A stretch of 64,000 nt of DNA from Bacteroidales bacterium (lineage in GTDB: Bacteria; Bacteroidota; Bacteroidia; Bacteroidales; B18-G4). Positions 930 to 55,587 of the stretch are shown here, one piece after another. The stretch is from positions 41,809 through 105,808 of the forward strand of contig JAVVEM010000004.1 in the NCBI GenBank assembly GCA_032250805.1, in the 5' to 3' direction. The notes beneath the pieces were generated by a model. It searched no databases. It was not told the origin of the DNA and saw only the letters and a program-made list of their open reading frames with translations. The position numbers and the translations under genes are program-made. The stretch's first letter is position 1; each line of letters opens with the position of its first letter.

Positions 930-1713
930 AGAGAAAACAGAAGGATTTACCCCGGATTTTGGAATTATTCTTGGCACAGGCCTGGGTGGCCTGGTGAATG
1001 AGATCGACAGCCATTACATTATTGAATACACTGAAATTCCGAATTTCCCGGTGTCGACCGTAAAAGGGCACCATGGAAAACTTATTTTTGGCACCCTCAG
1101 CGGAAAAAATGTCGTTGCCCTGCAGGGAAGGTTTCATTATTATGAAGGATACAGCATGCAGGAAGTTACTTTTCCGATCCGTATTATTAAGGCCCTGGGA
1201 ATAAAGCACCTTATACTTTCAAATGCCAGCGGTGGCCTTAACCCTGGTTTTGCCGTGGGCGATATTATGATCATTGAAGATCACATCAACCTGATGGGAA
1301 CCAACCCACTGATAGGCCCAAATGACGACAGGCTCGGCCCCAGATTTCCGGATATGAGTGAACCCTATGATCACCGCTTGCGCCAAAAGGCAGAAAGTAT
1401 CGCTTCGAAATTGCATATTTCATATCACACGGGCGTATATGCTGCTGTAACCGGACCTACCTTTGAAACGCCGGCCGAATATAAATATGTACGGCTTATT
1501 GGCAGTGATGCCGTTGGCATGTCGACGGTACCGGAAGTGATCGTTGCACGGCAGGCCGGCATACCCTGCCTGGCATTTTCAGTCATTTCAGATCTGGGCG
1601 TTGAAGGGAAGATCGTTGAAATCAGCCACGACGATGTGATCGATGCCGCCAGCATTGCTGAGCCAAAAATGACAAAGATCATAAAAGCATTTATCGAAGA
1701 AACGGACTCGTAA
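892..1713 (+). CDS. punA: purine nucleoside phosphorylase (PNP/MTAP family, PunA-type)
   Basis: ORF 808..1713. The conserved body begins at ATG 892 (MLKKIQETNQFLKEK). Motifs GIILGTGLG, HHGKLIFG, LQGRFHYYEGY, SNASGGLN and GMSTVPEV are present. It overlaps the lpxK 3' end by 38 nt. Confidence 0.88.
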   Translation: MLKKIQETNQFLKEKTEGFTPDFGIILGTGLGGLVNEIDSHYIIEYTEIPNFPVSTVKGHHGKLIFGTLSGKNVVALQGRFHYYEGYSMQEVTFPIRIIKALGIKHLILSNASGGLNPGFAVGDIMIIEDHINLMGTNPLIGPNDDRLGPRFPDMSEPYDHRLRQKAESIASKLHISYHTGVYAAVTGPTFETPAEYKYVRLIGSDAVGMSTVPEVIVARQAGIPCLAFSVISDLGVEGKIVEISHDDVIDAASIAEPKMTKIIKAFIEETDS

Positions 1714-2209
1714 CCTCTTCATCCATCGAAAGGTTCAATACCTTGATACGCCAGCGGTCGCCAATTGTTAATTTTCTGGTGTGCAAGGGAACAATGGCAT
1801 AACTGAATGCAACAAGGCTGCCACTGATGATCAGGGTATTTTTATCTACCATAACTTCATGATTGATCGCGTTATTCACAATGTCGAGAACCAGATATCC
1901 TGCTCCGGCATAACGCGTAAAACCCGACAAAAGGCCAAATCCCCACCTGGGCTTTAAAACACTTTCGATCTCGTTTAACATGATCTCCTGATCAAAATCA
2001 ACTACGATACTGCTATCGGTAATAAAATGGATGGAGCCGGCAATCTTGTCATTAAAAGGCATGGTTTTAAGGATGATCTCATCGCCAACAAAATACTTGA
2101 AGTTTTTAAATGTGCCCGGCTTTTCGACAAGCAATATTCTTTGCGCCTGAACATTGAATACCATCAGGCAGGCAACAGATATGAGGGATACTTTTAACAA
2201 GCTTTTCAT
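1691..2209 (-). CDS. hypothetical exported/membrane protein
   Basis: ORF 1691..2242. ATG at 2209 gives a signal-like N-terminus MKSLLKVSLISVACLMVFNVQAQ. No recognisable catalytic motif. Its 3' end overlaps the convergent punA 3' end by 23 nt. Confidence 0.55.
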   Translation of the reverse strand: MKSLLKVSLISVACLMVFNVQAQRILLVEKPGTFKNFKYFVGDEIILKTMPFNDKIAGSIHFITDSSIVVDFDQEIMLNEIESVLKPRWGFGLLSGFTRYAGAGYLVLDIVNNAINHEVMVDKNTLIISGSLVAFSYAIVPLHTRKLTIGDRWRIKVLNLSMDEEVTSPFLR

Positions 2210-2288
2210 TAATCGCACAATAATGATGATGAAATTACACATAAAAACAAATTTCAGAAAGCTTTTTGTTCACTAATTTCAAATACTA

Positions 2289-2296
2289 TATTTTTG
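2289..2296 (+). promoter_or_regulatory. Bacteroidota -7 promoter box (TAnnTTTG) candidate for the TlpA-like gene
   Basis: TATTTTTG followed by CAGC, 71 nt before ATG 2368. Confidence 0.45.
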
Positions 2297-2367
2297 CAGC
2301 ATAACAAAAGGTAATATTTCCGGGCATATATCGTTCGGATTATAAATCTGCTGAAGAACTTATCATC

Positions 2368-3558
2368 ATGAGAAACTTAATCATTTCGCTTGTATTGTTT
2401 ATCGCTTCCCTGCTTTCTCTTGTATCCTGCCAGCAAAGCGGGAAAAATACAACAAAAGCTGTGATCAGGGGCAATTACTTTCCTTTTGAGGAAAAGGTTT
2501 TTCTGAACGAGGTTACATCTGCTAATGTAGAAACGCTTGATTCGGCAGACATCAGCAATGGAGAGGAATTTTATTTTGAAGTTGAGGTCTCTGAGCCTAC
2601 AGTATTCAGGCTGGCGCATAAAACATTATATCCGATCATGGTCATTGCTGAAACCGGCGATACTGTAAGCATTACCCAGGCAGATGAGGAGGCCTGGCCG
2701 TATGAGGTAAAAGGGGGACCGGAATGCATGCTGCTTGTCAATTATCTCGAGCGCCTGAACCGTGATCATCATAAAGTCGACAGCTTATCGCTAATCTTTC
2801 AAAACAGCCAGAGTCACCCTGATTTTGTCAATATCAGGGAAAGACTGAATGAGGCATTCACCGAAATTTATGAAGGGCATAAGGAATATGCACGAAAGTT
2901 TGTTACAGAGCATCCCGCTTCTATTGCATCAATTATCGTTCTCAATGGGTTTTTCAGGGAGTTTGCTCTGTTCCATCAACATGATGATTTTAAATTCTAT
3001 GAGATCGTAAACGATGCCCTGGTCAAAAAAATGCCTGACAGCAAGTACACCAAAGATTTTACTGCGCAGGTAGAAAACATCAGGGCATCAAGAGATTATG
3101 AACTTGAAGCAAAGATGCGGCTTTCGCCCGGCCGACTGGTTCCTGATTTCAGCCTTCCAACAACCGATGGCAGCAAGATCGGCCCTAAGGATTTGGAAGG
3201 CAATAACCTGCTTATTTATTTCTGGGCATCGACGGATGCGCCTTCGCGCCAGGCCAACAAAATCGTTAAGAAAGCCTACGAAACTTTTAGCAGGTACGGA
3301 TTCCAGGTATTGGCAATTTCATTTGATAAGGATCCCGGGTTCTGGGAAGCAGCCATTGAACTCGACAGTTTGCCTGGCATTCATGCAACCGACCTGAAAG
3401 GTGCAGGATCGCCTGTACAGAAACTTTTCAACCTGAAAATGAGGTTGCCCGCTTACTTTCTCATCGACACAAAAGGACGTATCTTTGATCATGATCGTGA
3501 TTTTGGTAAATTGCAACAAAAGATCATTGAATTGTACAACCAAAAACAAGATTATTAA
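2368..3558 (+). CDS. TlpA/ResA-like thioredoxin-fold lipoprotein with the CxxC motif replaced
   Basis: Lipobox LVSC (Cys21). The C-terminal about 140 aa follow the TlpA pattern (PDFSLPTTDGSK..., LLIYFWAS, FQVLAISFD, PAYFLIDTKGRI). The position of WCGPC reads TDAPS (nt 3232..3246). Confidence 0.75.
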   Translation: MRNLIISLVLFIASLLSLVSCQQSGKNTTKAVIRGNYFPFEEKVFLNEVTSANVETLDSADISNGEEFYFEVEVSEPTVFRLAHKTLYPIMVIAETGDTVSITQADEEAWPYEVKGGPECMLLVNYLERLNRDHHKVDSLSLIFQNSQSHPDFVNIRERLNEAFTEIYEGHKEYARKFVTEHPASIASIIVLNGFFREFALFHQHDDFKFYEIVNDALVKKMPDSKYTKDFTAQVENIRASRDYELEAKMRLSPGRLVPDFSLPTTDGSKIGPKDLEGNNLLIYFWASTDAPSRQANKIVKKAYETFSRYGFQVLAISFDKDPGFWEAAIELDSLPGIHATDLKGAGSPVQKLFNLKMRLPAYFLIDTKGRIFDHDRDFGKLQQKIIELYNQKQDY

Positions 3559-4403: not shown

Positions 4404-5348
4404 TTATGGTGTCGCAGGGTTTATCTTACTCACCAGGTAAGCGTGCGTAACTGCAAGTTCAGCAGGGCTGTATTCGTCGAAATCCTTATGCACCTTTATC
4501 TCTCGCAGCTTATCCATATCACGGTCAAATATCTTATCCTCTGTTATAGGGATGTTGAGTTTTTGATAGAGTGCGGTAAAATCTTTTAATCTGTAACGGT
4601 TTTGCGGCTGGATACGATTATCAATGCACTTCCAGGTTTTCTTGCTGTATTGTAAAAAATTATAAACATTTATCTTTTTATCGAAGTGTGCAAAATGATC
4701 CGACATATCAATAAAATGACTCATCACGCCCCCGGGTTTGATCAATCTTTTAAATTCATTAAGGATGTCTTCAAGCACCTTCGCATGGATATGTTCAAAA
4801 GTATTGTTTGAACAGATGAGATCGAATTCCTTGTCGGGCAACCCGGTGTTTGCAGCATCTTTTAAGAGGGGCTTAAAGAGCATGGTCTTATTGATATCAT
4901 CCATTGTGTATTGTCCGGGATTTTCATGAATATGCAAAAGCTTTGCCCAGCGTTCATCATCAAAAGAGCCGGAATACTCAACCAGTTTGCCTGTTTTATC
5001 CCATTCCACAAGTTTGCTTATCGTATTAAGCTGCCTTTCGCGTGTCATCCATGACCTGATATCAAGAGAGGTTACCATTCCGCTTTTTGTCAGGAACATA
5101 AACACCGGAACTACCGGGTACCAGCCTGTGCCCAGTTCGAGAATCATTTTTTCCGGGCCCGGGCTCCCATACTTCCTGAAATAATGAATATGGTCCCATG
5201 CATGGCCAACCTTAAAGCCAAAGTGTTCATCTGTAAGGTCCACACCGTGGGTAACGTGTTTCTGAAACAGAAAATTCAGCTGTTCGCGCATAGGCAGGAA
5301 CGAAATACACTTCTGTACAACCGCTTTAAGTTTCCATTTTGAGACCAT
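4404..5348 (-). CDS. class I SAM-dependent methyltransferase, substrate unknown
   Basis: Motif I ILELGTGWYP, later FDLICSNNTFEHI and LIKPGGV. 314 aa, ATG start. Confidence 0.7.
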   Translation of the reverse strand: MVSKWKLKAVVQKCISFLPMREQLNFLFQKHVTHGVDLTDEHFGFKVGHAWDHIHYFRKYGSPGPEKMILELGTGWYPVVPVFMFLTKSGMVTSLDIRSWMTRERQLNTISKLVEWDKTGKLVEYSGSFDDERWAKLLHIHENPGQYTMDDINKTMLFKPLLKDAANTGLPDKEFDLICSNNTFEHIHAKVLEDILNEFKRLIKPGGVMSHFIDMSDHFAHFDKKINVYNFLQYSKKTWKCIDNRIQPQNRYRLKDFTALYQKLNIPITEDKIFDRDMDKLREIKVHKDFDEYSPAELAVTHAYLVSKINPATP

Positions 5349-5371
5349 TCGGGCTCCTCCATTATATATTT

Positions 5372-6385
5372 CTACACAAATCTTTCAATCAATTCAACCA
5401 GCCTGTGGGCATATCCTGTTTCATTATCATACCAGGCCACCACTTTAACCAGTTTGTTCTTGTCGCCAAGCACAGCGGTCAGGCCGGCATCGAAAACAGC
5501 CGAATGCGGGTTTCCGATCACATCGACCGAAACGATCGGGTCTTCGGTATATTCCAGGATGCCTTTGAGGCTGTTTTCAGAAGCTTCTTTAAACACGGCA
5601 TTGATCTCCTTCACACTGGTAGGTTTGGATAGTGTACAGGTAAGATCGGTGAGCGAGCCATCCGGAACCGGTACCCGTATACCTGCTCCGCCAAGATTGT
5701 GTTCAAGGTGAGGGAATATCTTTGTGGCCGCTTTGGCAGCCCCTGTGGTTGTAGGGACTATGGAATATGCTGCTGCACGCGCCCTGCGAAGATCCTTGTG
5801 TGGTGCATCGAGCAGGTTCTGGTCGCGGGTGTATGAGTGAACGGTGGTAATAAAGCCCTTTTCCACTCCCCACAACTTATCAAGAATCATGATCAGGGGC
5901 GCCACATTATTTGTTGTGCAGGATGAATTGGAGATGATTACATCATTCTTATTTATCAAATGATCGTTTACGCCAAGCACAATATAGGGTACGCCGTCGC
6001 TTTCACCTTTTGCCGGGGCTGAGATGATCACTTTCCTTGCTCCGGATTCTGTTACATGCCTTATCGCATCTTCTTTTTTTACGAACAGGCCTGTTGATTC
6101 TATCACCACATCGACATTCATTTGCTTCCAGGGAAGGCTGCCCGGGTTTTCTTCTTTCAGCACCCTTATTTTCCTGCCCATGATATAGAGGTGCTCATCA
6201 TCCCAGCTAACTTCACCCCTGAAAACCCCGTGTATCGAATCATATTTGAATAAATGCCCCAATGTTGCCGGACAGCTGAGATCGTTGACTGCCACCAGCT
6301 CCATTTGTTCATTGTTACACATTGCCCTGTAAGTGATCCGTCCTATCCTTCCGAAGCCATTAATGGCCACCCTGATCTTTTTCAT
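5372..6385 (-). CDS. gap: type I glyceraldehyde-3-phosphate dehydrogenase (paralogue 1)
   Basis: INGFGRIGR, SNSSCTTNNVAP (nucleophile Cys present), TTVHSYTRDQ, TTTGAAKA, IRVPVPDGS and WYDNETGYA. Confidence 0.9.
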   Translation of the reverse strand: MKKIRVAINGFGRIGRITYRAMCNNEQMELVAVNDLSCPATLGHLFKYDSIHGVFRGEVSWDDEHLYIMGRKIRVLKEENPGSLPWKQMNVDVVIESTGLFVKKEDAIRHVTESGARKVIISAPAKGESDGVPYIVLGVNDHLINKNDVIISNSSCTTNNVAPLIMILDKLWGVEKGFITTVHSYTRDQNLLDAPHKDLRRARAAAYSIVPTTTGAAKAATKIFPHLEHNLGGAGIRVPVPDGSLTDLTCTLSKPTSVKEINAVFKEASENSLKGILEYTEDPIVSVDVIGNPHSAVFDAGLTAVLGDKNKLVKVVAWYDNETGYAHRLVELIERFV

Positions 6386-48787: not shown

Positions 48788-48812
48788 AATTGGCCTGAAC
48801 AAAGATATTTTG

Positions 48813-51431
48813 ATGATGCAAAAACTTTTTTTCTTCTTTTTGGCACTATTCAGTTGCGCATCAGCCCTTGCCACCCACCAACGGGCAGGCGAGATCACCT
48901 ATAAATATGTTTCGGGTCTGACTTTTGAGATCACTGTGATCACCTATACCCGGACTTCGGCACCTGCCGACCGTCCGATGCTGGAAGTAAAATGGGGCGA
49001 TGGCACCAGCAGTGAACTCCCACGCACCGAAAAAATCAACTACGGCAATGATATCAGCCGCAATGTATACGCTTATGTGCCCGAAATCGGAGCCACACAG
49101 GCACGGCATACCTATTCTTCGCCCGGGACCTATAAGATCTCTGTTGAAGATCCCAACAGAAATTTCGGTGTGATGAATATCCCTAATTCGGTAAATGTTC
49201 CCTTATATATTGAAAGCATATTAACCATTAACCCCCTCCTGGGGATGAACAATTCGCCGGTATTGCTCAATCCTCCGATCGACAACGGTTGTGCTTTTCA
49301 AATTTATAACCACAACCCCGGAGCTTATGATATTGATGGTGACAGCCTGGCATACAGCCTGATCGCCTGCCGCGGCACGGATGGCCTGGTAATTCCCGGG
49401 TATACCCTGCCTCTTGCAACAGACAGCATCACCATCAATCCTGTTACGGGCGATGTAATCTGGGCTGTTCCTCCGATGCAGGGCGAGTTTAATCTTGCCA
49501 TATTAATTGAAGAATACAGGAACGGGATAAAAATCGGCAGCATTACGCGCGATATGCAGATCAACATTATCGGTTGTGAGGGACAGCAACCCCCTGTAAT
49601 TATTTCAAAAAGCGACACCTGTGTTGAAGCCGGCGATACACTTATCATGGAAATCAAAGCATATGACCCGGATGGCGATCAGGTGGAACTGACTGGAACG
49701 GGCGGTCCTTTTGAGCTTAACCAGAGCCCCGCATGGCTTGATCCGGATCCGGCAAGCGGCAACGACACGGTTACAACCACGCTGACATGGCCAACAATTT
49801 GCAACCATGTTCAAAAACAACCATATTTTACCTATTTTAAGGCACAGGACGATGGGAGCCCGGTAAATCTTGTTGCACTCAAAACAATTACCATTACCGT
49901 TATCGGCCCCGCCCCCAAAGACCCCTTTGCCGAAGCAATCGGAAGTTCTATTCACCTCAACTGGAGAAAAAGCCCCTGCACAAAAGCAGCAAAATACGAC
50001 ATATACCGGAGGATCGGGTATTATGGTTATTTTCCGGGCTATTGTGAAACCGGGGTGCCTGCATATACCGGATACACATTGATACATACCACAAACAGTG
50101 CCAATGACACCACCTACATTGATAATGGAAATGAAAATGGACTGATCAATGGGCTGGATTATTGCTATATGATCGTGGCTGTATTTGTTGACGGAGCTGA
50201 AAGCTATGCATCGGAGGAAGTCTGTGTCAGTCTGAAAAAAGACCTCCCGATCATTACCAATGCGGGGAACGACAGTGCCGACCTCAGCCGGGGCTTTGCC
50301 CGGCTGGCCTGGTCAAAGCCCACCGAACTGGATACGATCCAGATACCCGGCCCCTATTATTATGAATTACTCAGGGCTGAAGGCCTGAGCAGTCAGGAGT
50401 TCCAGTTCATTGAAAGCTTTAACGGGCTTAACGACACCCTCTACATTGATGCTTCAGCAAATCTGAATACGATTCCCTATCCATATAACTACAGGCTTGA
50501 TTTTTTCAGCGAAAGCATGGGATATATCGGGTCAAGCCAGGATGCGAGCACCATTCTTCTGAATATTTACGAAACCGACCAACGCCTTGAATTAAGCTGG
50601 CAGCTCAATGTACCCTGGACCAATGAATACTATAACATCTACAAAAGATCACCAGGCAGTGACCAGTACCTTTTAACCGGAAGCTCTACTGTGCCTTTCT
50701 ATACTGACACGAACCTGATAAACCACGAGGAATATTGTTATTATATTGAAAGCTATGGCAGCTATGGTACAGCAGGAATTTTCCATCCCCTGCTGAATTA
50801 TTCACAACTGGCCTGCGGCAGTCCTTACGATAATATCCCTCCCTGTCGGCCGGGATTGGACGTTTACACCAATTGTGTACGTTACGAAAACAAACTGGTT
50901 TGGAATAACCCCGCCTATGCCGACACCTGCGATAAAGACATCGCGAAATACTACATTTATTACAGTCCCGGGCAATCATCGGATCTCACCCTGCTTGATT
51001 CCGTTTCACAAAATTTTAACGACAGCCTGGAATATATCCATGCAGGAGTCACTCTTGGGTGTTATGCCATTACTGCCATTGACTCGGTGGGAAATCAAAG
51101 TTTGTTCAGCAATATTGTATGCACACCAGGTTGTTCGGGTTATGAGTTGCCCAATGTATTTACACCCAATGGCGATCAGTATAACGATCTGTTCACTCCC
51201 TATCAGGAGACTCTCGGGGGAGTTGAATCGGTAGAGATGAGTATTTTCAACCGCTGGGGATTGCTTGTGTTTGAAACCACCGACCCCATGATCAATTGGG
51301 ATGGAAGGCATTATAAAACCAACAAGGAATGTGCTGATGCAACCTATTTCTACATCTGTATTGTTTACGAAAATACCCTGAACGGCCTTGTTGAAAAAAC
51401 CATTCAGGGTACGGTTACTATTCTTCGGTAA
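48813..51431 (+). CDS. large secreted protein with T9SS type B (gliding-motility-associated) C-terminal domain
   Basis: Signal peptide, then the N-terminal HQRAGEITYKY motif. The C-terminus (LPNVFTPNGDQYNDLF...INWDGR...TYFY) matches the CHU_C/type B sorting domain. ATG 48813 is preferred over TTG 48810. Confidence 0.8.
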   Translation: MMQKLFFFFLALFSCASALATHQRAGEITYKYVSGLTFEITVITYTRTSAPADRPMLEVKWGDGTSSELPRTEKINYGNDISRNVYAYVPEIGATQARHTYSSPGTYKISVEDPNRNFGVMNIPNSVNVPLYIESILTINPLLGMNNSPVLLNPPIDNGCAFQIYNHNPGAYDIDGDSLAYSLIACRGTDGLVIPGYTLPLATDSITINPVTGDVIWAVPPMQGEFNLAILIEEYRNGIKIGSITRDMQINIIGCEGQQPPVIISKSDTCVEAGDTLIMEIKAYDPDGDQVELTGTGGPFELNQSPAWLDPDPASGNDTVTTTLTWPTICNHVQKQPYFTYFKAQDDGSPVNLVALKTITITVIGPAPKDPFAEAIGSSIHLNWRKSPCTKAAKYDIYRRIGYYGYFPGYCETGVPAYTGYTLIHTTNSANDTTYIDNGNENGLINGLDYCYMIVAVFVDGAESYASEEVCVSLKKDLPIITNAGNDSADLSRGFARLAWSKPTELDTIQIPGPYYYELLRAEGLSSQEFQFIESFNGLNDTLYIDASANLNTIPYPYNYRLDFFSESMGYIGSSQDASTILLNIYETDQRLELSWQLNVPWTNEYYNIYKRSPGSDQYLLTGSSTVPFYTDTNLINHEEYCYYIESYGSYGTAGIFHPLLNYSQLACGSPYDNIPPCRPGLDVYTNCVRYENKLVWNNPAYADTCDKDIAKYYIYYSPGQSSDLTLLDSVSQNFNDSLEYIHAGVTLGCYAITAIDSVGNQSLFSNIVCTPGCSGYELPNVFTPNGDQYNDLFTPYQETLGGVESVEMSIFNRWGLLVFETTDPMINWDGRHYKTNKECADATYFYICIVYENTLNGLVEKTIQGTVTILR

Positions 51432-51478: not shown

Positions 51479-52483
51479 CTACTTATCAATGGTCTTCAGT
51501 ATGGTGATCAGGTCAACAACCCGGTTGCTGTAGCCCCATTCGTTATCATACCAGTTCAGTGTACGAACGATGCGTTTACCAAGTACCTTGGTATATTCGG
51601 GATCGTATATGGAGCTGTATGAATTTCCAACGATATCTGATGAAACTACTTTATCTTCAGAGTAGAGCAGGATATTTTCCATCCGTTTTGTTTTTGAGGC
51701 AATCCTCACTGCGGCGTGTATATCTTCAATGCTCACATCTTTTTTTAATTCAACCACAAGGTCGACCACCGATCCGTCGGGCACGGGCACTCTCGAAGCC
51801 ATCCCGTCAAGTTTCCCTTTTAATGCGGGAATAACCTGTCCGACCACTTTAGCGGCACCGGTTGTGGTAGGGATAATATTCTCGGCCGCAGCACGTCCGC
51901 GACGCCAGTCTTTGTGTGGTACATCAGCCAGGCGTTGATCATTCGTATAGGCATGTGTAGTGGTCATCAAGCCTTCCCTGATGCCGAACGAATCGTTCAG
52001 AACCTTTGCCATAGGAGCCAGACAATTCGTAGTACAACTGGCATTGGAAATGATCCTGTGCTCAGGCTTAAGGTCATCCTCATTTACACCAATCACCACA
52101 GTACAGTCGATCTCATCTTTTGAAGGCACGGTGAGCACTACTCGTTTGGCACCTGCCTGGAGGTGCAGTTCGAGGCTTTGGCGTGTACGGAAAATGCCGG
52201 TTGCTTCGACAACAACATCAATTTCAAGTTCCTTCCATGGAAGCTTATCCGGCTCACGTATGCTGAGCATCTTTACTTTCTCGTGCGGGGTGACCAAATA
52301 ATCACCATCAAGCGAAATATCCTGGCCGAAGCCCGACATAACCGTATCATATTTTAACAGATATGCCAGTACTTCATTGTCGAATAAGTCGTTAATGGCT
52401 ACTACATCGATATCTTCACGCGCATTGAGGATACGGAACACTGATCGCCCGATCCTTCCAAATCCGTTTATTGCTACTCTCAT
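51479..52483 (-). CDS. gap: type I glyceraldehyde-3-phosphate dehydrogenase (paralogue 2, canonical active site)
   Basis: INGFGRIGR, SNASCTTNCLAP (Cys150), TTTHAYTNDQ, TTTGAAKV, SRVPVPDGS and WYDNEWGYS. Its ATG overlaps the stop of the upstream paralogue (ATGA at 52480..52483). Confidence 0.9.
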   Translation of the reverse strand: MRVAINGFGRIGRSVFRILNAREDIDVVAINDLFDNEVLAYLLKYDTVMSGFGQDISLDGDYLVTPHEKVKMLSIREPDKLPWKELEIDVVVEATGIFRTRQSLELHLQAGAKRVVLTVPSKDEIDCTVVIGVNEDDLKPEHRIISNASCTTNCLAPMAKVLNDSFGIREGLMTTTHAYTNDQRLADVPHKDWRRGRAAAENIIPTTTGAAKVVGQVIPALKGKLDGMASRVPVPDGSVVDLVVELKKDVSIEDIHAAVRIASKTKRMENILLYSEDKVVSSDIVGNSYSSIYDPEYTKVLGKRIVRTLNWYDNEWGYSNRVVDLITILKTIDK

Positions 52484-53505
52484 TGCGAACCTCCTTTCTT
52501 GTCTAATTCATTATAAGCCACGATCAGGTCAACGATCCTGCTTGCAGTGGCAAGTGCAGTATGGTACCAGGTCAGCGTTTTCACCATTCTTCCCAGCGAC
52601 ATCATTGTTGCCTGTGTGTCAAAATTTACAGAGTGACGGTTGCCAATAACATCAGTTGAGACGATAGGGTCGTCGACCACCCGGACAACCATGGGGTGAT
52701 TTTCAGCATACTTACGCACAGCTTCGTTCACCTGGACCTTCGTTACGCCTGTCTTTTTCAAAACAGTGGTCAGGTCAAGGAGCGAACCATTCGGCACCGG
52801 CACATTAAGTGCTGAGCCTTCGATCCTGCCTTTGAATTCAGGCATGATATGCTGTTGTATCCATCTGGGGCTGGGTGTTTCGTTAGGGATAATGTTTTCG
52901 GCGGCTGAACGGCTTCGCCTGAAATCATGACTGGCCTTATCACGCAACGGCTGATCGGAAGTATATGAGTGTACTGTAGTGAGCATTGCATAGTCAACAC
53001 CAAAAGCTTCATCAAGTATCTTCATGATAATGGCTGTGGCATTTGTGGTTGCAGACCCTGCACATACAATTTTGTCAGCAGCTTTCATGGTGTTTTCGTT
53101 CACACCTTTAACCACGATCCTGTCGATCTCATCAGAAGGCAACATGGACAGTACAACACGTTTTGCCCCTGCTTTCAAGTGACGTTCCAGTTCGGCCCTG
53201 GATTTATACATTCCTGTACCATCAATGGCGACATCAACATCCAGACTGTCCCAGAGCACATCACCCGGCTCCAGATGCCTTCCCTGGATCATCCTGGCCC
53301 TGCCATTTGAGGAAACCAGAAAGTTTCCTTCCAGCCTGACATCGATTCCACCCTTGGTCTCTGCCTTAAGCAGATACTCAAGGATCTCGGGGCGACCCAG
53401 GTCGGCTATCGCCACGATCTCTATGCGGTTATCGTTAAGGCAAAGACGATATACGTGCCGCCCCACCTCACCGAATCCCATAATTCCAACTCGAATTCTT
53501 TTCAT
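52480..53505 (-). CDS. GAPDH-family protein lacking the catalytic cysteine (paralogue 3, probable non-canonical or pseudoenzyme)
   Basis: Intact 341-aa ORF of GAPDH length and layout (IMGFGEVGR, TTVHSYTSDQ). The active-site motif reads CAGSATTNA, with Ala152 codon GCA at 53050..53052. TGAAK is replaced by ETPSPRW, RVPV by NVPV, and WYDNEWGYS by WYHTALATAS. Confidence 0.8.
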   Translation of the reverse strand: MKRIRVGIMGFGEVGRHVYRLCLNDNRIEIVAIADLGRPEILEYLLKAETKGGIDVRLEGNFLVSSNGRARMIQGRHLEPGDVLWDSLDVDVAIDGTGMYKSRAELERHLKAGAKRVVLSMLPSDEIDRIVVKGVNENTMKAADKIVCAGSATTNATAIIMKILDEAFGVDYAMLTTVHSYTSDQPLRDKASHDFRRSRSAAENIIPNETPSPRWIQQHIMPEFKGRIEGSALNVPVPNGSLLDLTTVLKKTGVTKVQVNEAVRKYAENHPMVVRVVDDPIVSTDVIGNRHSVNFDTQATMMSLGRMVKTLTWYHTALATASRIVDLIVAYNELDKKGGSQ

Positions 53506-53605
53506 AATTATAAAAATTTTATTGTTCTACAAATCCTTAACATTCCCAGGTAAAATACGTTCAAAAAAAGTGATGAAATATTTTTCCTGATCTTGCAAGG
53601 AGGCT

Positions 53606-53613
53606 GCAAAGTT
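53606..53613 (-). promoter_or_regulatory. -7 box candidate for the tandem GAPDH-family pair
   Basis: The minus strand reads TTAACTTTGCAGC, 100 nt before ATG 53505. Confidence 0.4.
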
Positions 53614-53786
53614 AATATTTATATGGCAGATCTGGTATTAATATTGTGTTAATTTTCAACAATTAAGCATCTGAAGATATTAGATTTCCAATCAAAGAAA
53701 CCTATCTGCAGGTAGCTGAGGATATATCAAATCCGGCCATCTTTCATTTAAAAATGGAAGCATCATAGTATTATAGTTATTTGTCG

Positions 53787-53794
53787 TATTTTTG
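53787..53794 (+). promoter_or_regulatory. -7 box candidate abutting the lepA start codon
   Basis: TATTTTTGCACCAATG. Only 5 nt separate the box from ATG 53800. Confidence 0.45.
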
Positions 53795-53799
53795 CACCA

Positions 53800-55587
53800 A
53801 TGAAAAATACCCGTAATTTCTGCATCATCGCCCATATCGACCATGGTAAAAGTACACTGGCCGACAGGCTTCTTGAGATGACCGGTACCATTTCCGACCG
53901 TGACCTTCAGGAACAGGTGCTGGATAATATGGACCTGGAACGGGAAAGGGGAATCACCATTAAGAGTCATGCCATACAAATGGAATATGACTTTGAGGGA
54001 GAGCATTATTTGCTTAATCTTATCGATACTCCGGGGCATGTTGATTTTTCATACGAGGTATCGCGCAGCCTGGCGGCATGCGAAGGAGCTCTCCTGATCG
54101 TTGATGCCACTCAGGGAATACAGGCCCAAACGATCTCGAACCTTTATCTGGCCATAGAAAACGACCTGGAGATCATCCCGGTTCTGAACAAAATGGATCT
54201 CGAAGCAGCCATGCCCGAAGATGTTAAAGACCAGATCGTCGACCTGATCGGATGTAATCGTGACGACATCATCGAAGCCAGCGGCAAGACCGGTTATGGC
54301 GTTGAACGCATGCTCGAAGACATTATTCGCAAGATACCATCGCCAAGAGGCGACCCCGATGCACCTCTGCAGGCCATGATCTTCGACTCTGTATTTAATT
54401 CTTTTCGTGGCATTATTGCCTATATCAGGATTATAAACGGTACCTTAAAAAAAGGTGAGCTGGTAAAATTTGTGAATACACGTAAAGAATACAATGCCGA
54501 CGAAATTGGGGTACTTAAGCTTAAACAGGATCCCAAAAAACAGCTTTCGGCAGGCGATGTTGGATATATTATTTCCGGCATTAAGATGTCGAAGGAAGTG
54601 AAAGTGGGCGACACCATTACGCATGTCGACAGGCCTTGCGAAAAAGCTATTGCCGGATATAAAGAAGTTAAACCTATGGTATTTGCCGGCCTTTATCCTG
54701 TTGATGCCGATGAATATGAAGAACTAAGGGCTTCGCTCGAAAAGCTTCAGCTCAATGATGCATCCCTTACATTTGAGCCCGAATCATCGGCAGCTCTTGG
54801 ATTTGGCTTCAGGTGCGGATTCCTGGGATTGCTCCATATGGAGATCATACAGGAACGACTCGACAGGGAGTTTGATATGAACGTAATTACAACGGTTCCC
54901 AATGTCTCCTATAATGTCATTACCCACAAAGGCGAACGCCTAGAGGTACACAACCCTTCCGGATTGCCCGATCAGAAATATATCGACCACATCGAAGAAC
55001 CATACATTATTGCGCAGATCATTTCAAAAAATGAATTTGTAGGCTCAGTAATGAAACTCTGCATTGATAAACGTGGGATATTAAAGAACCAGGTATATCT
55101 TACCAGCAACCGCGTTGAGGTGACCTTTGAGATGCCGCTTGGCGAGATTGTCTTTGATTTCTATGATAAGCTAAAAAGCATTTCGCGGGGCTATGCATCA
55201 TTCGATTACCACCAGTCGGGATATAAACCCGCCAAACTGGTGAAACTCGATATTTTGCTGAATGGCGAATCGGTTGATGCCTTGTCAACGCTGATTCATC
55301 AGGACAATGCCTACGATTTTGGACGAAGAATGTGCGTTAAACTGAAAGAACTCATCCCCCGACAGCAATTCGATATTGCCATACAGGCAGCCATTGGCGC
55401 CAAGATCATTGCCCGCGAAACAGTTAAAGCAGTTAGAAAAGACGTCACCGCCAAATGTTATGGTGGCGATATTACCCGTAAGCGTAAACTTCTTGAAAAA
55501 CAAAAGAAAGGGAAAAAAAGAATGCGTCAGGTAGGTAATGTGGAAGTCCCGCAGCAGGCATTTTTAGCCGTTCTTAAACTGGACTGA
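53800..55587 (+). CDS. lepA: elongation factor 4 (LepA)
   Basis: Motifs [31 protein letters not shown] and the C-terminal [16 protein letters not shown]. Confidence 0.93.

Follow-up and report, generated by a model that had tools for sequence, protein, structure and literature searches.

Two overlapping GAPDH genes and the residues altered in psi

We analysed a stretch of 64,000 nucleotides from the genome of a Bacteroidales bacterium (assembly GCA_032250805.1, contig JAVVEM010000004.1, positions 41,809 to 105,808; hereafter the window), which carries on its minus strand two adjacent genes of the glyceraldehyde-3-phosphate dehydrogenase (GAPDH) family. The upstream gene, psi-gap (52480..53505, minus strand), was recognized as an open reading frame (ORF) with Pfam matches and encodes a GAPDH-fold paralogue of 341 amino acids, called psi below. 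The downstream gene, the partner gap (51479..52483, minus strand), was recognized as an ORF matching TIGR01534 and encodes a canonical type I GAPDH of 334 amino acids, which belongs to a distinct subfamily referred to as the partner subfamily. The stop codon of psi and the start codon of the partner share an ATGA (52480..52483, minus strand): the junction reads ...GGT TCG CAA TGA, in which 52483..52481 form the partner ATG and 52482..52480 the psi TGA, an exact overlap of four nucleotides. An earlier note on this DNA had described two minus-strand GAPDH ORFs joined in this way, and both its coordinates and its junction sequence proved exact. A Shine-Dalgarno (SD)-like sequence, AAAGGAGG (52490..52497, minus strand), is embedded in the last codons of psi (K337-G338-G339), 6 nucleotides ahead of the partner ATG.

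The two proteins align end to end with 41% identity across 338 residues (BLASTP, E = 6e-87), and both matched the Pfam domains Gp_dh_N and Gp_dh_C (for psi, E = 7e-16 and 3e-41). The type I GAPDH model TIGR01534, with a cut-off of 367.2 bits, was passed by the partner (434.5 bits) and failed by psi (265.4 bits), which also stayed below the cut-offs of every other NCBIfam GAPDH and erythrose-4-phosphate dehydrogenase (E4PDH) model. Against the Epd model TIGR01532, psi reached 215 bits for a cut-off of 530 and has no cysteine at the nucleophile position; its membership in Epd or in the ArsJ-associated GAPDHs was rejected. The partner contains the motifs INGFGRIGR, SNASCTTNCLAP (with Cys150), TTTHAYTNDQ, TTTGAAK, SRVPV and WYDNEWGYS, its subfamily is marked by DTVMxxF, VPxKDEID and DVPHKDWRR, and its closest solved structure is the Thermotoga maritima GAPDH 1HDG. 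The motifs of psi are GFGEVGR, CAGSATTNA, TTVHSYTSDQ, ETPSPRW, LNVPV and WYHTALATAS. All the motifs quoted in the earlier note are present in the two proteins, and the partner is fully canonical, as it had been described.

Residues are numbered below after the GAPDH of Geobacillus stearothermophilus, unless those of the window psi are given. The BLASTP alignment places Ala152 of the window psi (codon GCA, 53050..53052, minus strand) opposite Cys150 of the partner, at the position of the catalytic Cys149, where it had been expected. In the same protein, R231 is replaced by Asn234, R10 by Glu13, D312 by His315, and the T208-G209 phosphate site by ETPSP. Of 74 orthologues of psi, 60 have Ala at the nucleophile position and 14 have Ser; none has Cys. 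In the 72 Bacteroidales sequences, R231 of the Ps site is Asn without exception and G209 of the new Pi site is P, I, T or V but never Gly, so that the altered phosphate-site motifs first seen in the window extend to its orthologues. Position R10 is Glu in all 72, with a variable G12. The replacement of WYDNEWGYS by WYHTALATAS could be refined to an invariant His in place of Asp312 (72 of 72, the WYHTA motif) followed by a variable position 313 (T, S, A or N), and both E314 and Y317 are lost. The general base H176 (His179 in the window) is invariant in this set, and S148, T150, T179, D181, R194/195/197, T96 and D/E32 are retained as well. The NAD fingerprint is accordingly mixed, with Asp/Glu32 and Thr96 kept and R10, G12 and N313 changed or variable. 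By comparison, the catalytic, NAD and phosphate-site residues of the partner are canonical and invariant in 74 of 74 sequences. With regard to type I GAPDH (EC 1.2.1.12; TIGR01534; 1GD1 from G. stearothermophilus, 1HDG from T. maritima), psi has the same two-domain fold and retains His176, Ser148, Thr150, Thr179 and the RRxR of the S-loop, whereas Cys149, Arg231 and T208-G209 are missing and Arg10 has become Glu.

The window psi has a cysteine, Cys148, four residues upstream of the canonical nucleophile, which the earlier note had singled out for a check. Because it is Ser in 72 of the 74 orthologues and no conserved Cys column exists anywhere in the alignment of the psi family, Cys148 is not a relocated nucleophile. 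Since the nucleophile is always Ala or Ser, Arg231 is Asn, Gly209 is gone and the TIGR01534 cut-off is failed, psi, judged from its sequence, cannot be a conventional GAPDH, and a thiol-dependent (thiohemiacetal) chemistry would be impossible. The same view of the upstream product, formed before from the window psi, is borne out by every orthologue.

The monomer of psi was modelled with AlphaFold2 (AF2) at a pLDDT of 89.7 and a pTM of 0.89, and Foldseek superimposed the model on solved GAPDHs with TM scores of 0.87-0.89 at 31-37% identity. This shows, at the level of the model, that the GAPDH fold of psi is intact. The S-loop, encoded at 52885..52971 (minus strand; residues 179-207, HSYTSDQPLRDKASHDFRRSRSAAENIIP), is the most conserved segment of psi, with an entropy of 0.15-0.21, and the 15-mers of lowest entropy start at residues 175 and 194. 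Residues 182-203 form the sole long stretch of low confidence in the monomer model (pLDDT < 50). In canonical GAPDH, the S-loop forms the core of the tetramer and borders the NAD site of the neighbour across the R axis. High conservation together with low confidence in a modelled monomer fits a constraint that would be exerted by intersubunit contacts. At position 187 of the S-loop, Lys or Arg is present in 60 of 72 Bacteroidales psi sequences versus Val in the partner, which suggests, speculatively, that this residue of psi may affect the coenzyme pocket of the partner.

Conservation and translational coupling of the pair

Homologues of psi were searched among 5.8 billion proteins. The top 120 matches are 63-95% identical and almost all full length, which defines a tight family. 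A scan of GTDB with one genome per species yielded at least 303 genomes that encode a relative, the best 80 of which were fetched as loci; these 80 are all metagenome-assembled, and nearly all are labelled Bacteroidales, Bacteroidota or Lentimicrobiaceae. Wherever the contig spans the gene, the psi ORF is intact in the fetched orthologues (80/80). The median dN/dS values (Nei-Gojobori) were 0.064 (psi) and 0.038 (partner), and the closest and least saturated pair gave values of 0.074 and 0.064 at a dS of 0.17 and 0.10, respectively. About 85 positions of psi are at least 97% identical among the orthologues. These data show that psi is a maintained gene under strong purifying selection.

With the window, the sample comprised 81 loci, four of which are cut by contig ends; downstream sequence was available in 77 (76 fetched loci and the window). 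A canonical GAPDH of the partner subfamily lies directly downstream of psi in all 77. This recurrence (77 of the 81 loci) is far beyond chance. The synteny, the intact reading frames and the low dN/dS all agree with the earlier note, which had described an uninterrupted gene coupled to a catalytic partner and had named frameshifts or a dN/dS near 1 as signs of decay. The junction is the four-nucleotide ATGA overlap in 74 of the 77 loci, a -1 overlap in two and a gap of +2 in one. A GGAG occurs within the last 24 nucleotides of psi in 80 of 80 genes, at a fixed spacing in 77, and the first Gly codon of the KGG tail is GGA in 70 of 70 as against 35% GGA elsewhere in psi genes. With its embedded SD sequence and fixed GGA codon, part of the conserved KGG tail of psi thus reflects a constraint at the nucleotide level for translation of the partner. 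In the window, an SD core of at least 5 nucleotides (GGAGG or AGGAG) precedes just 4 of 45 long ORFs, with minus-strand starts at 5348, 14372, 24389 and 52483, all of which are closely spaced downstream cistrons. The use of SD sequences in this Bacteroidota genome seems to be confined to internal genes of operons.

The pair is separated by 53506..53799 (a region without strand assignment, read from the ORF map) from the divergent lepA (53800..55587, plus strand), and the promoter of the two-gene operon is presumably situated there. Convergent to the partner lies a gene for an 873-residue protein (48810..51431, plus strand), a putative surface protein sorted by the type IX secretion system (T9SS). 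Each of these two positions is kept in about half of the Bacteroidales loci, and other genes flank the pair in the remainder. Because the flanking genes vary across the family, the conserved unit is the two-gene module; being housekeeping and variable, the lepA and T9SS-type flanks give no functional clue. The comparison of flanks across the family revealed no conserved neighbour that points to another partner of psi. An Rfam scan around the operon found no element, the scan for sigma-70-type promoters and terminators between the two gap genes gave no signal above chance, and the same scans around the operon were equally uninformative.

A third GAPDH gene is present in the window (5372..6385, minus strand). 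It stands alone and is fully canonical (SNSSCTTN, TTGAAK, IRVPVP, WYDNETGY), reaches 399.1 bits with TIGR01534 and shares 44% identity with the partner. Since this stand-alone, housekeeping-type GAPDH is also encoded, the pair represents an additional and specialised GAPDH system. The third gene is followed by an ORF of 314 amino acids (4404..5348), which is preceded by a GGAGG.

Relatives of the pair in other phyla

An exhaustive HMMER search was made over 1.84 billion cluster representatives, and the nearest 136 clusters (at 50% identity) were inspected. About 21 of them have no Cys at the nucleophile position, where A, S, G, N, V or P is found, and most of these Cys-less clusters are also devoid of R231 and of TGAAK. 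A profile built from them recovered a large family, termed N231-type, in Fidelibacterota/Marinimicrobia, Acidobacteriota, Eisenbacteria and Acidimicrobiia. Every named record encountered in this family and in the Bacteroidales psi clusters comes from a metagenome-assembled genome (MAG), and the carriers encountered are all uncultured.

In 114 members of this wider family, R231 is Asn in 106, G209 is retained in none and E314 is Gly in 108. The NAD fingerprint (GFGRIGR, D32, N313) is kept, with R10 in 112, G12 in 114 and N313 in 110, and 22 of the 114 have kept the nucleophile Cys. An alignment of 122 sequences, which takes in psi, the partner and 14 GAPDHs of the R231 type, gave at the nucleophile position 57 Ser, 35 Cys, 15 Ala, 11 Asn, 2 Ile, 1 Gly and 1 Thr. 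With at least six kinds of residue standing in for the nucleophile, the thiol is dispensable for the role of the wider family, whatever that is, and this variety of replacements implies several independent losses of the Cys. In one sub-branch (P0128, P0297 and P0320) the motif reads GSSSCHA: Ser occupies the nucleophile position, and the Cys that follows two residues later could be a thiol that has migrated in a single lineage.

Contigs were examined for nine diverse members of the wider family. One of them, P0123, lies on a contig of 1.3 kb without any downstream sequence, and seven contigs did provide it. A second gene of the GAPDH family follows immediately in all seven (L082-L088), whether or not the upstream copy has kept its Cys; in L088 the downstream gene is cut by the contig end and its assignment to the family is tentative. 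The Fidelibacterota locus L083 shows the four-nucleotide overlap and a KGGAA tail. In the Acidobacteriota locus L084, a PFK-family gene (4882-5913, minus strand) lies directly upstream of the pair and divergent from it, and is the sole glycolysis-related neighbour that was seen. The psi-type protein of this locus, P0277 (Acidobacteriota MAG, L084:6001-7014), carries Ala in place of the nucleophile and Thr at 231, passes TIGR01534 with 375.6 bits against the cut-off of 367.2, and is annotated as 'type I glyceraldehyde-3-phosphate dehydrogenase', which exemplifies a risk of systematic misannotation. More generally, database names for the family are inconsistent ('GAPDH', 'NAD-binding domain-containing protein', 'aldehyde dehydrogenase', 'hypothetical protein').

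The survey was also made from the partner side. Among the matches listed, generic motifs selected 80 GAPDH loci from metagenomes, and tandem GAPDH genes occur in only four of these: three loci of the partner type, which were all paired (3/3), and L099. The upstream copy of the L099 pair (1411-3505) has C149 and R231, an altered TGAAK (TTTSAG) and GFGRTGR; it may stand at a less degenerate stage of the paired arrangement or be a separate instance of it.

Several composite proteins were encountered as well. In P0127 (297 amino acids), a psi-type C-terminal half is continued by a partner-type GAPDH from about residue 80 on. This ORF is probably an artefact of assembly or a deletion and no true fusion, and shows once more that the two genes adjoin. 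P0121, P0143 and P0134 were rejected as psi-partner fusions, as they are unrelated proteins with several GAPDH copies, each of which keeps its Cys. Two of these, obtained from the search of representatives, are unusual glycolytic fusions with an N-terminal hydrophobic leader: P0121 (2089 amino acids) has the order GAPDH-GAPDH-PGK-GAPDH-GAPDH, and P0143 (1455 amino acids) combines two GAPDH domains with HEAT-like repeats.

In a neighbour-joining tree, for which no bootstrap support was computed, the psi-type sequences, including those that retain Cys, form one clade and the partners another, which is separate from the housekeeping GAPDHs, and the two clades branch roughly in parallel. The pairwise distances of psi and partner are correlated (r = 0.69), psi evolving 1.67 times faster. 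The clades are separate and roughly co-phyletic, and pairs were retrieved from Bacteroidota, Fidelibacterota, Acidobacteriota and Eisenbacteria. It follows that the pair is old and has been inherited as a unit. The earlier note had proposed a local tandem duplication followed by divergence, on the strength of a segment, (V/L)PSxDEIDxxVVxGVNE, shared by the two window proteins; the separate clades and the pairs in four phyla do not support this proposal. Across several phyla, VPSxDEID is a hallmark of the partner subfamily, and the duplication is therefore ancient rather than local. The likely order of events is an ancient duplication, loss of the phosphate sites, replacement of the thiol and, in Bacteroidales, remodelling of the NAD site, where R10 became Glu together with the change of D312 to His.

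A proposed non-catalytic subunit and other possible roles of psi

Three roles had been envisaged for psi: a subunit, a regulator or an enzyme with new chemistry. The data favour a non-catalytic subunit. On balance, psi and its partner probably associate physically into a heteromeric GAPDH, an assembly to which the sequences point. Because the overlap, the spacing and the SD sequence are conserved across phyla, synthesis in equal numbers is favoured: a single bicistronic mRNA with translational coupling would yield about as much psi as partner, and the two proteins would form a heteromer, probably a 2:2 tetramer. To this tetramer psi would supply its near-invariant S-loop, which would contribute to the core and to the NAD pocket of the partner. 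The resulting enzyme would have half of the usual active sites, and its regulation, cooperativity or coenzyme preference may be altered, as with the 'prozyme' activators.

In trypanosomatids, prozymes are dead paralogues of S-adenosylmethionine decarboxylase (AdoMetDC), deoxyhypusine synthase (DHS) and PRMT1, which activate the live enzyme within a heteromer; the DHS prozyme forms a heterotetramer and produces a 3000-fold activation (PMC3663545; PMC5201418; 10.1101/776112). They are the closest mechanistic analogy, as a selected dead paralogue is paired with an active one, and psi shows the features of this type: essential residues lost, purifying selection, and consistent co-encoding with an active paralogue. 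The differences are that prozymes are eukaryotic, come from unlinked genes and serve a live paralogue that is impaired alone, whereas the psi-partner pair is bacterial and coupled in an operon, with a partner that looks fully competent.

The only well-known heteromeric GAPDH is the chloroplast A2B2 enzyme, made of the two paralogous subunits GapA and GapB, and its entries 2PKQ and 7Q53 were among the PDB matches of psi. In plants GapA and GapB both catalyse, and regulation by GapB depends on a C-terminal extension that contains Cys, whereas psi is predicted to be catalytically dead and its tail (KKGGSQ) is short, without Cys and largely explained by the embedded SD sequence; the heteromer, established for the plant enzyme, is an inference here.

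Several observations weigh against a role of psi as a structural subunit. The partner has no obvious defect that would make psi necessary. No natural fusion of psi and partner was found in our searches, P0127 being called chimeric and P0121 and P0143 unrelated. The distance correlation of 0.69 is expected from shared phylogeny alone, and dS was mostly near saturation in the dN/dS comparison. The S-loop argument is without a valid control, the AF2 model of the partner, made from an alignment of five sequences, having a pLDDT of 49.6. Finally, the residues that replace the canonical ones in psi are themselves invariant (E13, H17, N234, H315 and W215), and H176, S148, T150, T179 and R195 are retained, which could equally be compatible with a preserved pocket for ligand binding or catalysis.

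This last point is the ground for a neofunctionalised psi that would act independently, in an oligomer of its own, with a pocket remodelled for thiol-independent chemistry or for sensing or buffering a metabolite. The pocket would comprise His176 with Glu13, His17, Asn234, His315 and Trp215, and co-transcription with the partner would merely reflect a shared pathway. The substituted residues do not drift, His176, Ser148, Thr150, Thr179 and Arg194/195/197 persist, the wider family has the full NAD fingerprint, and there the Cys survives in 22 of 114 members and lies two residues downstream in the GSSSCHA sub-branch. However, the nucleophile position accepts at least six residues other than Cys, some of which (Ala, Gly and Ile) are incapable of catalysis, the NAD signature is itself eroded in Bacteroidales (R10 to Glu, with G12 and N313 variable), and co-expression within a pathway does not require an overlap of fixed spacing with an embedded SD sequence, kept across phyla. 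We regard independent neofunctionalisation as rather unlikely. Less probable still is a stoichiometric regulator of GAPDH or a moonlighting protein (an inhibitory decoy subunit, a scaffold for other glycolytic enzymes, or a binder of RNA or surfaces) that would be no constitutive structural subunit. Dead paralogues are known as regulators of their active counterparts (PMC10211241), an inactive GAPDH-like protein has a non-enzymatic location in trypanosomes (PMC4106842), and the organism has another, stand-alone GAPDH. Yet translational coupling ties the level of psi to that of the partner, a poor fit for a conditional regulator; psi is a plain GAPDH fold of 341 amino acids with neither signal peptide nor extra domain; and, as described above, no conserved neighbour suggests a different partner.

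A relocated nucleophile, for instance the Cys148 that the window psi does contain, would leave psi a working GAPDH; this is highly improbable and is refuted by the Ser found at this position in 72 of 74 orthologues, the lack of a conserved Cys column, the loss of R231 and T208-G209, and scores below the NCBIfam GAPDH and E4PDH cut-offs. That psi is a decaying pseudogene from a recent duplication is scarcely credible and is likewise refuted: several catalytic residues are indeed lost, but all 80 ORFs spanned by their contigs are intact, dN/dS is about 0.06, the roughly 85 positions at 97% identity or above are maintained, and the gene is conserved not just in other phyla but in 303 or more genomes at the species level. 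A non-catalytic subunit of a heteromeric GAPDH remains the reading that we prefer.

The earlier note had not recognized the arrangement as a described system, and searches of the literature, NCBIfam and PDB likewise returned no match. In the papers that could be searched, full-text queries on inactive, heteromeric or tandem GAPDH retrieved no bacterial case and no operon of a dead and a live GAPDH, and a 'pseudo-GAPDH' reportedly described in Firmicutes received no support from them. No curated NCBIfam model for a bacterial dead GAPDH was found. Searches of the PDB by sequence and by fold with psi returned just canonical GAPDHs and engineered C149A/S mutants, and no relative that is naturally without Cys. 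GAPDH is not mentioned in a review of pseudoenzymes (PMC10211241). The flagellar GAPDH-like protein of Trypanosoma brucei (TbGAPDHL) is predicted to be inactive yet is retained, and may have kept part of the cofactor site (PMC4106842). In this it resembles psi, a natural GAPDH homologue that is likewise predicted to be inactive and retained; TbGAPDHL is, however, a poorly conserved and unpaired component of the cytoskeleton, seen as a relic, whereas psi shows high conservation and is translated together with an active GAPDH.

By analogy, a pseudoenzyme partner in a heteromeric enzyme would be of a kind already known. The recurring psi-partner operon points to an undescribed mixed-subunit form of a glycolytic enzyme. 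A broader proposition, which we put forward tentatively and with less assurance than the heteromer itself, is that uncultured Bacteroidales, Fidelibacterota/Marinimicrobia, Acidobacteriota, Eisenbacteria and others possess an ancient and widespread second GAPDH system, in which the dead paralogue would be an obligate subunit of a heterotetramer with two active sites, and its S-loop would reshape the coenzyme pocket or the cooperativity of the partner.

GAPDH is the textbook homotetramer, and a decades-long debate surrounds its negative cooperativity and half-of-the-sites behaviour. If the heteromer is real, the pair would be a natural, hard-wired 'half-of-the-sites' GAPDH: with two of its subunits live and two dead, this conserved, operon-coupled enzyme would amount to a natural experiment that bears directly on this behaviour. 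The prozyme design, in which an enzyme is joined to its dead paralogue and which the papers retrieved describe in trypanosomatids only, would then also gain a clear example among prokaryotes. The stepwise series of losses, from the phosphate sites to the Cys and, last, the NAD site in Bacteroidales, would be useful for studies of pseudoenzyme evolution. Finally, the inconsistent annotation of the dead copies means that GAPDH genes are miscounted when the metabolism of these uncultured lineages is reconstructed.

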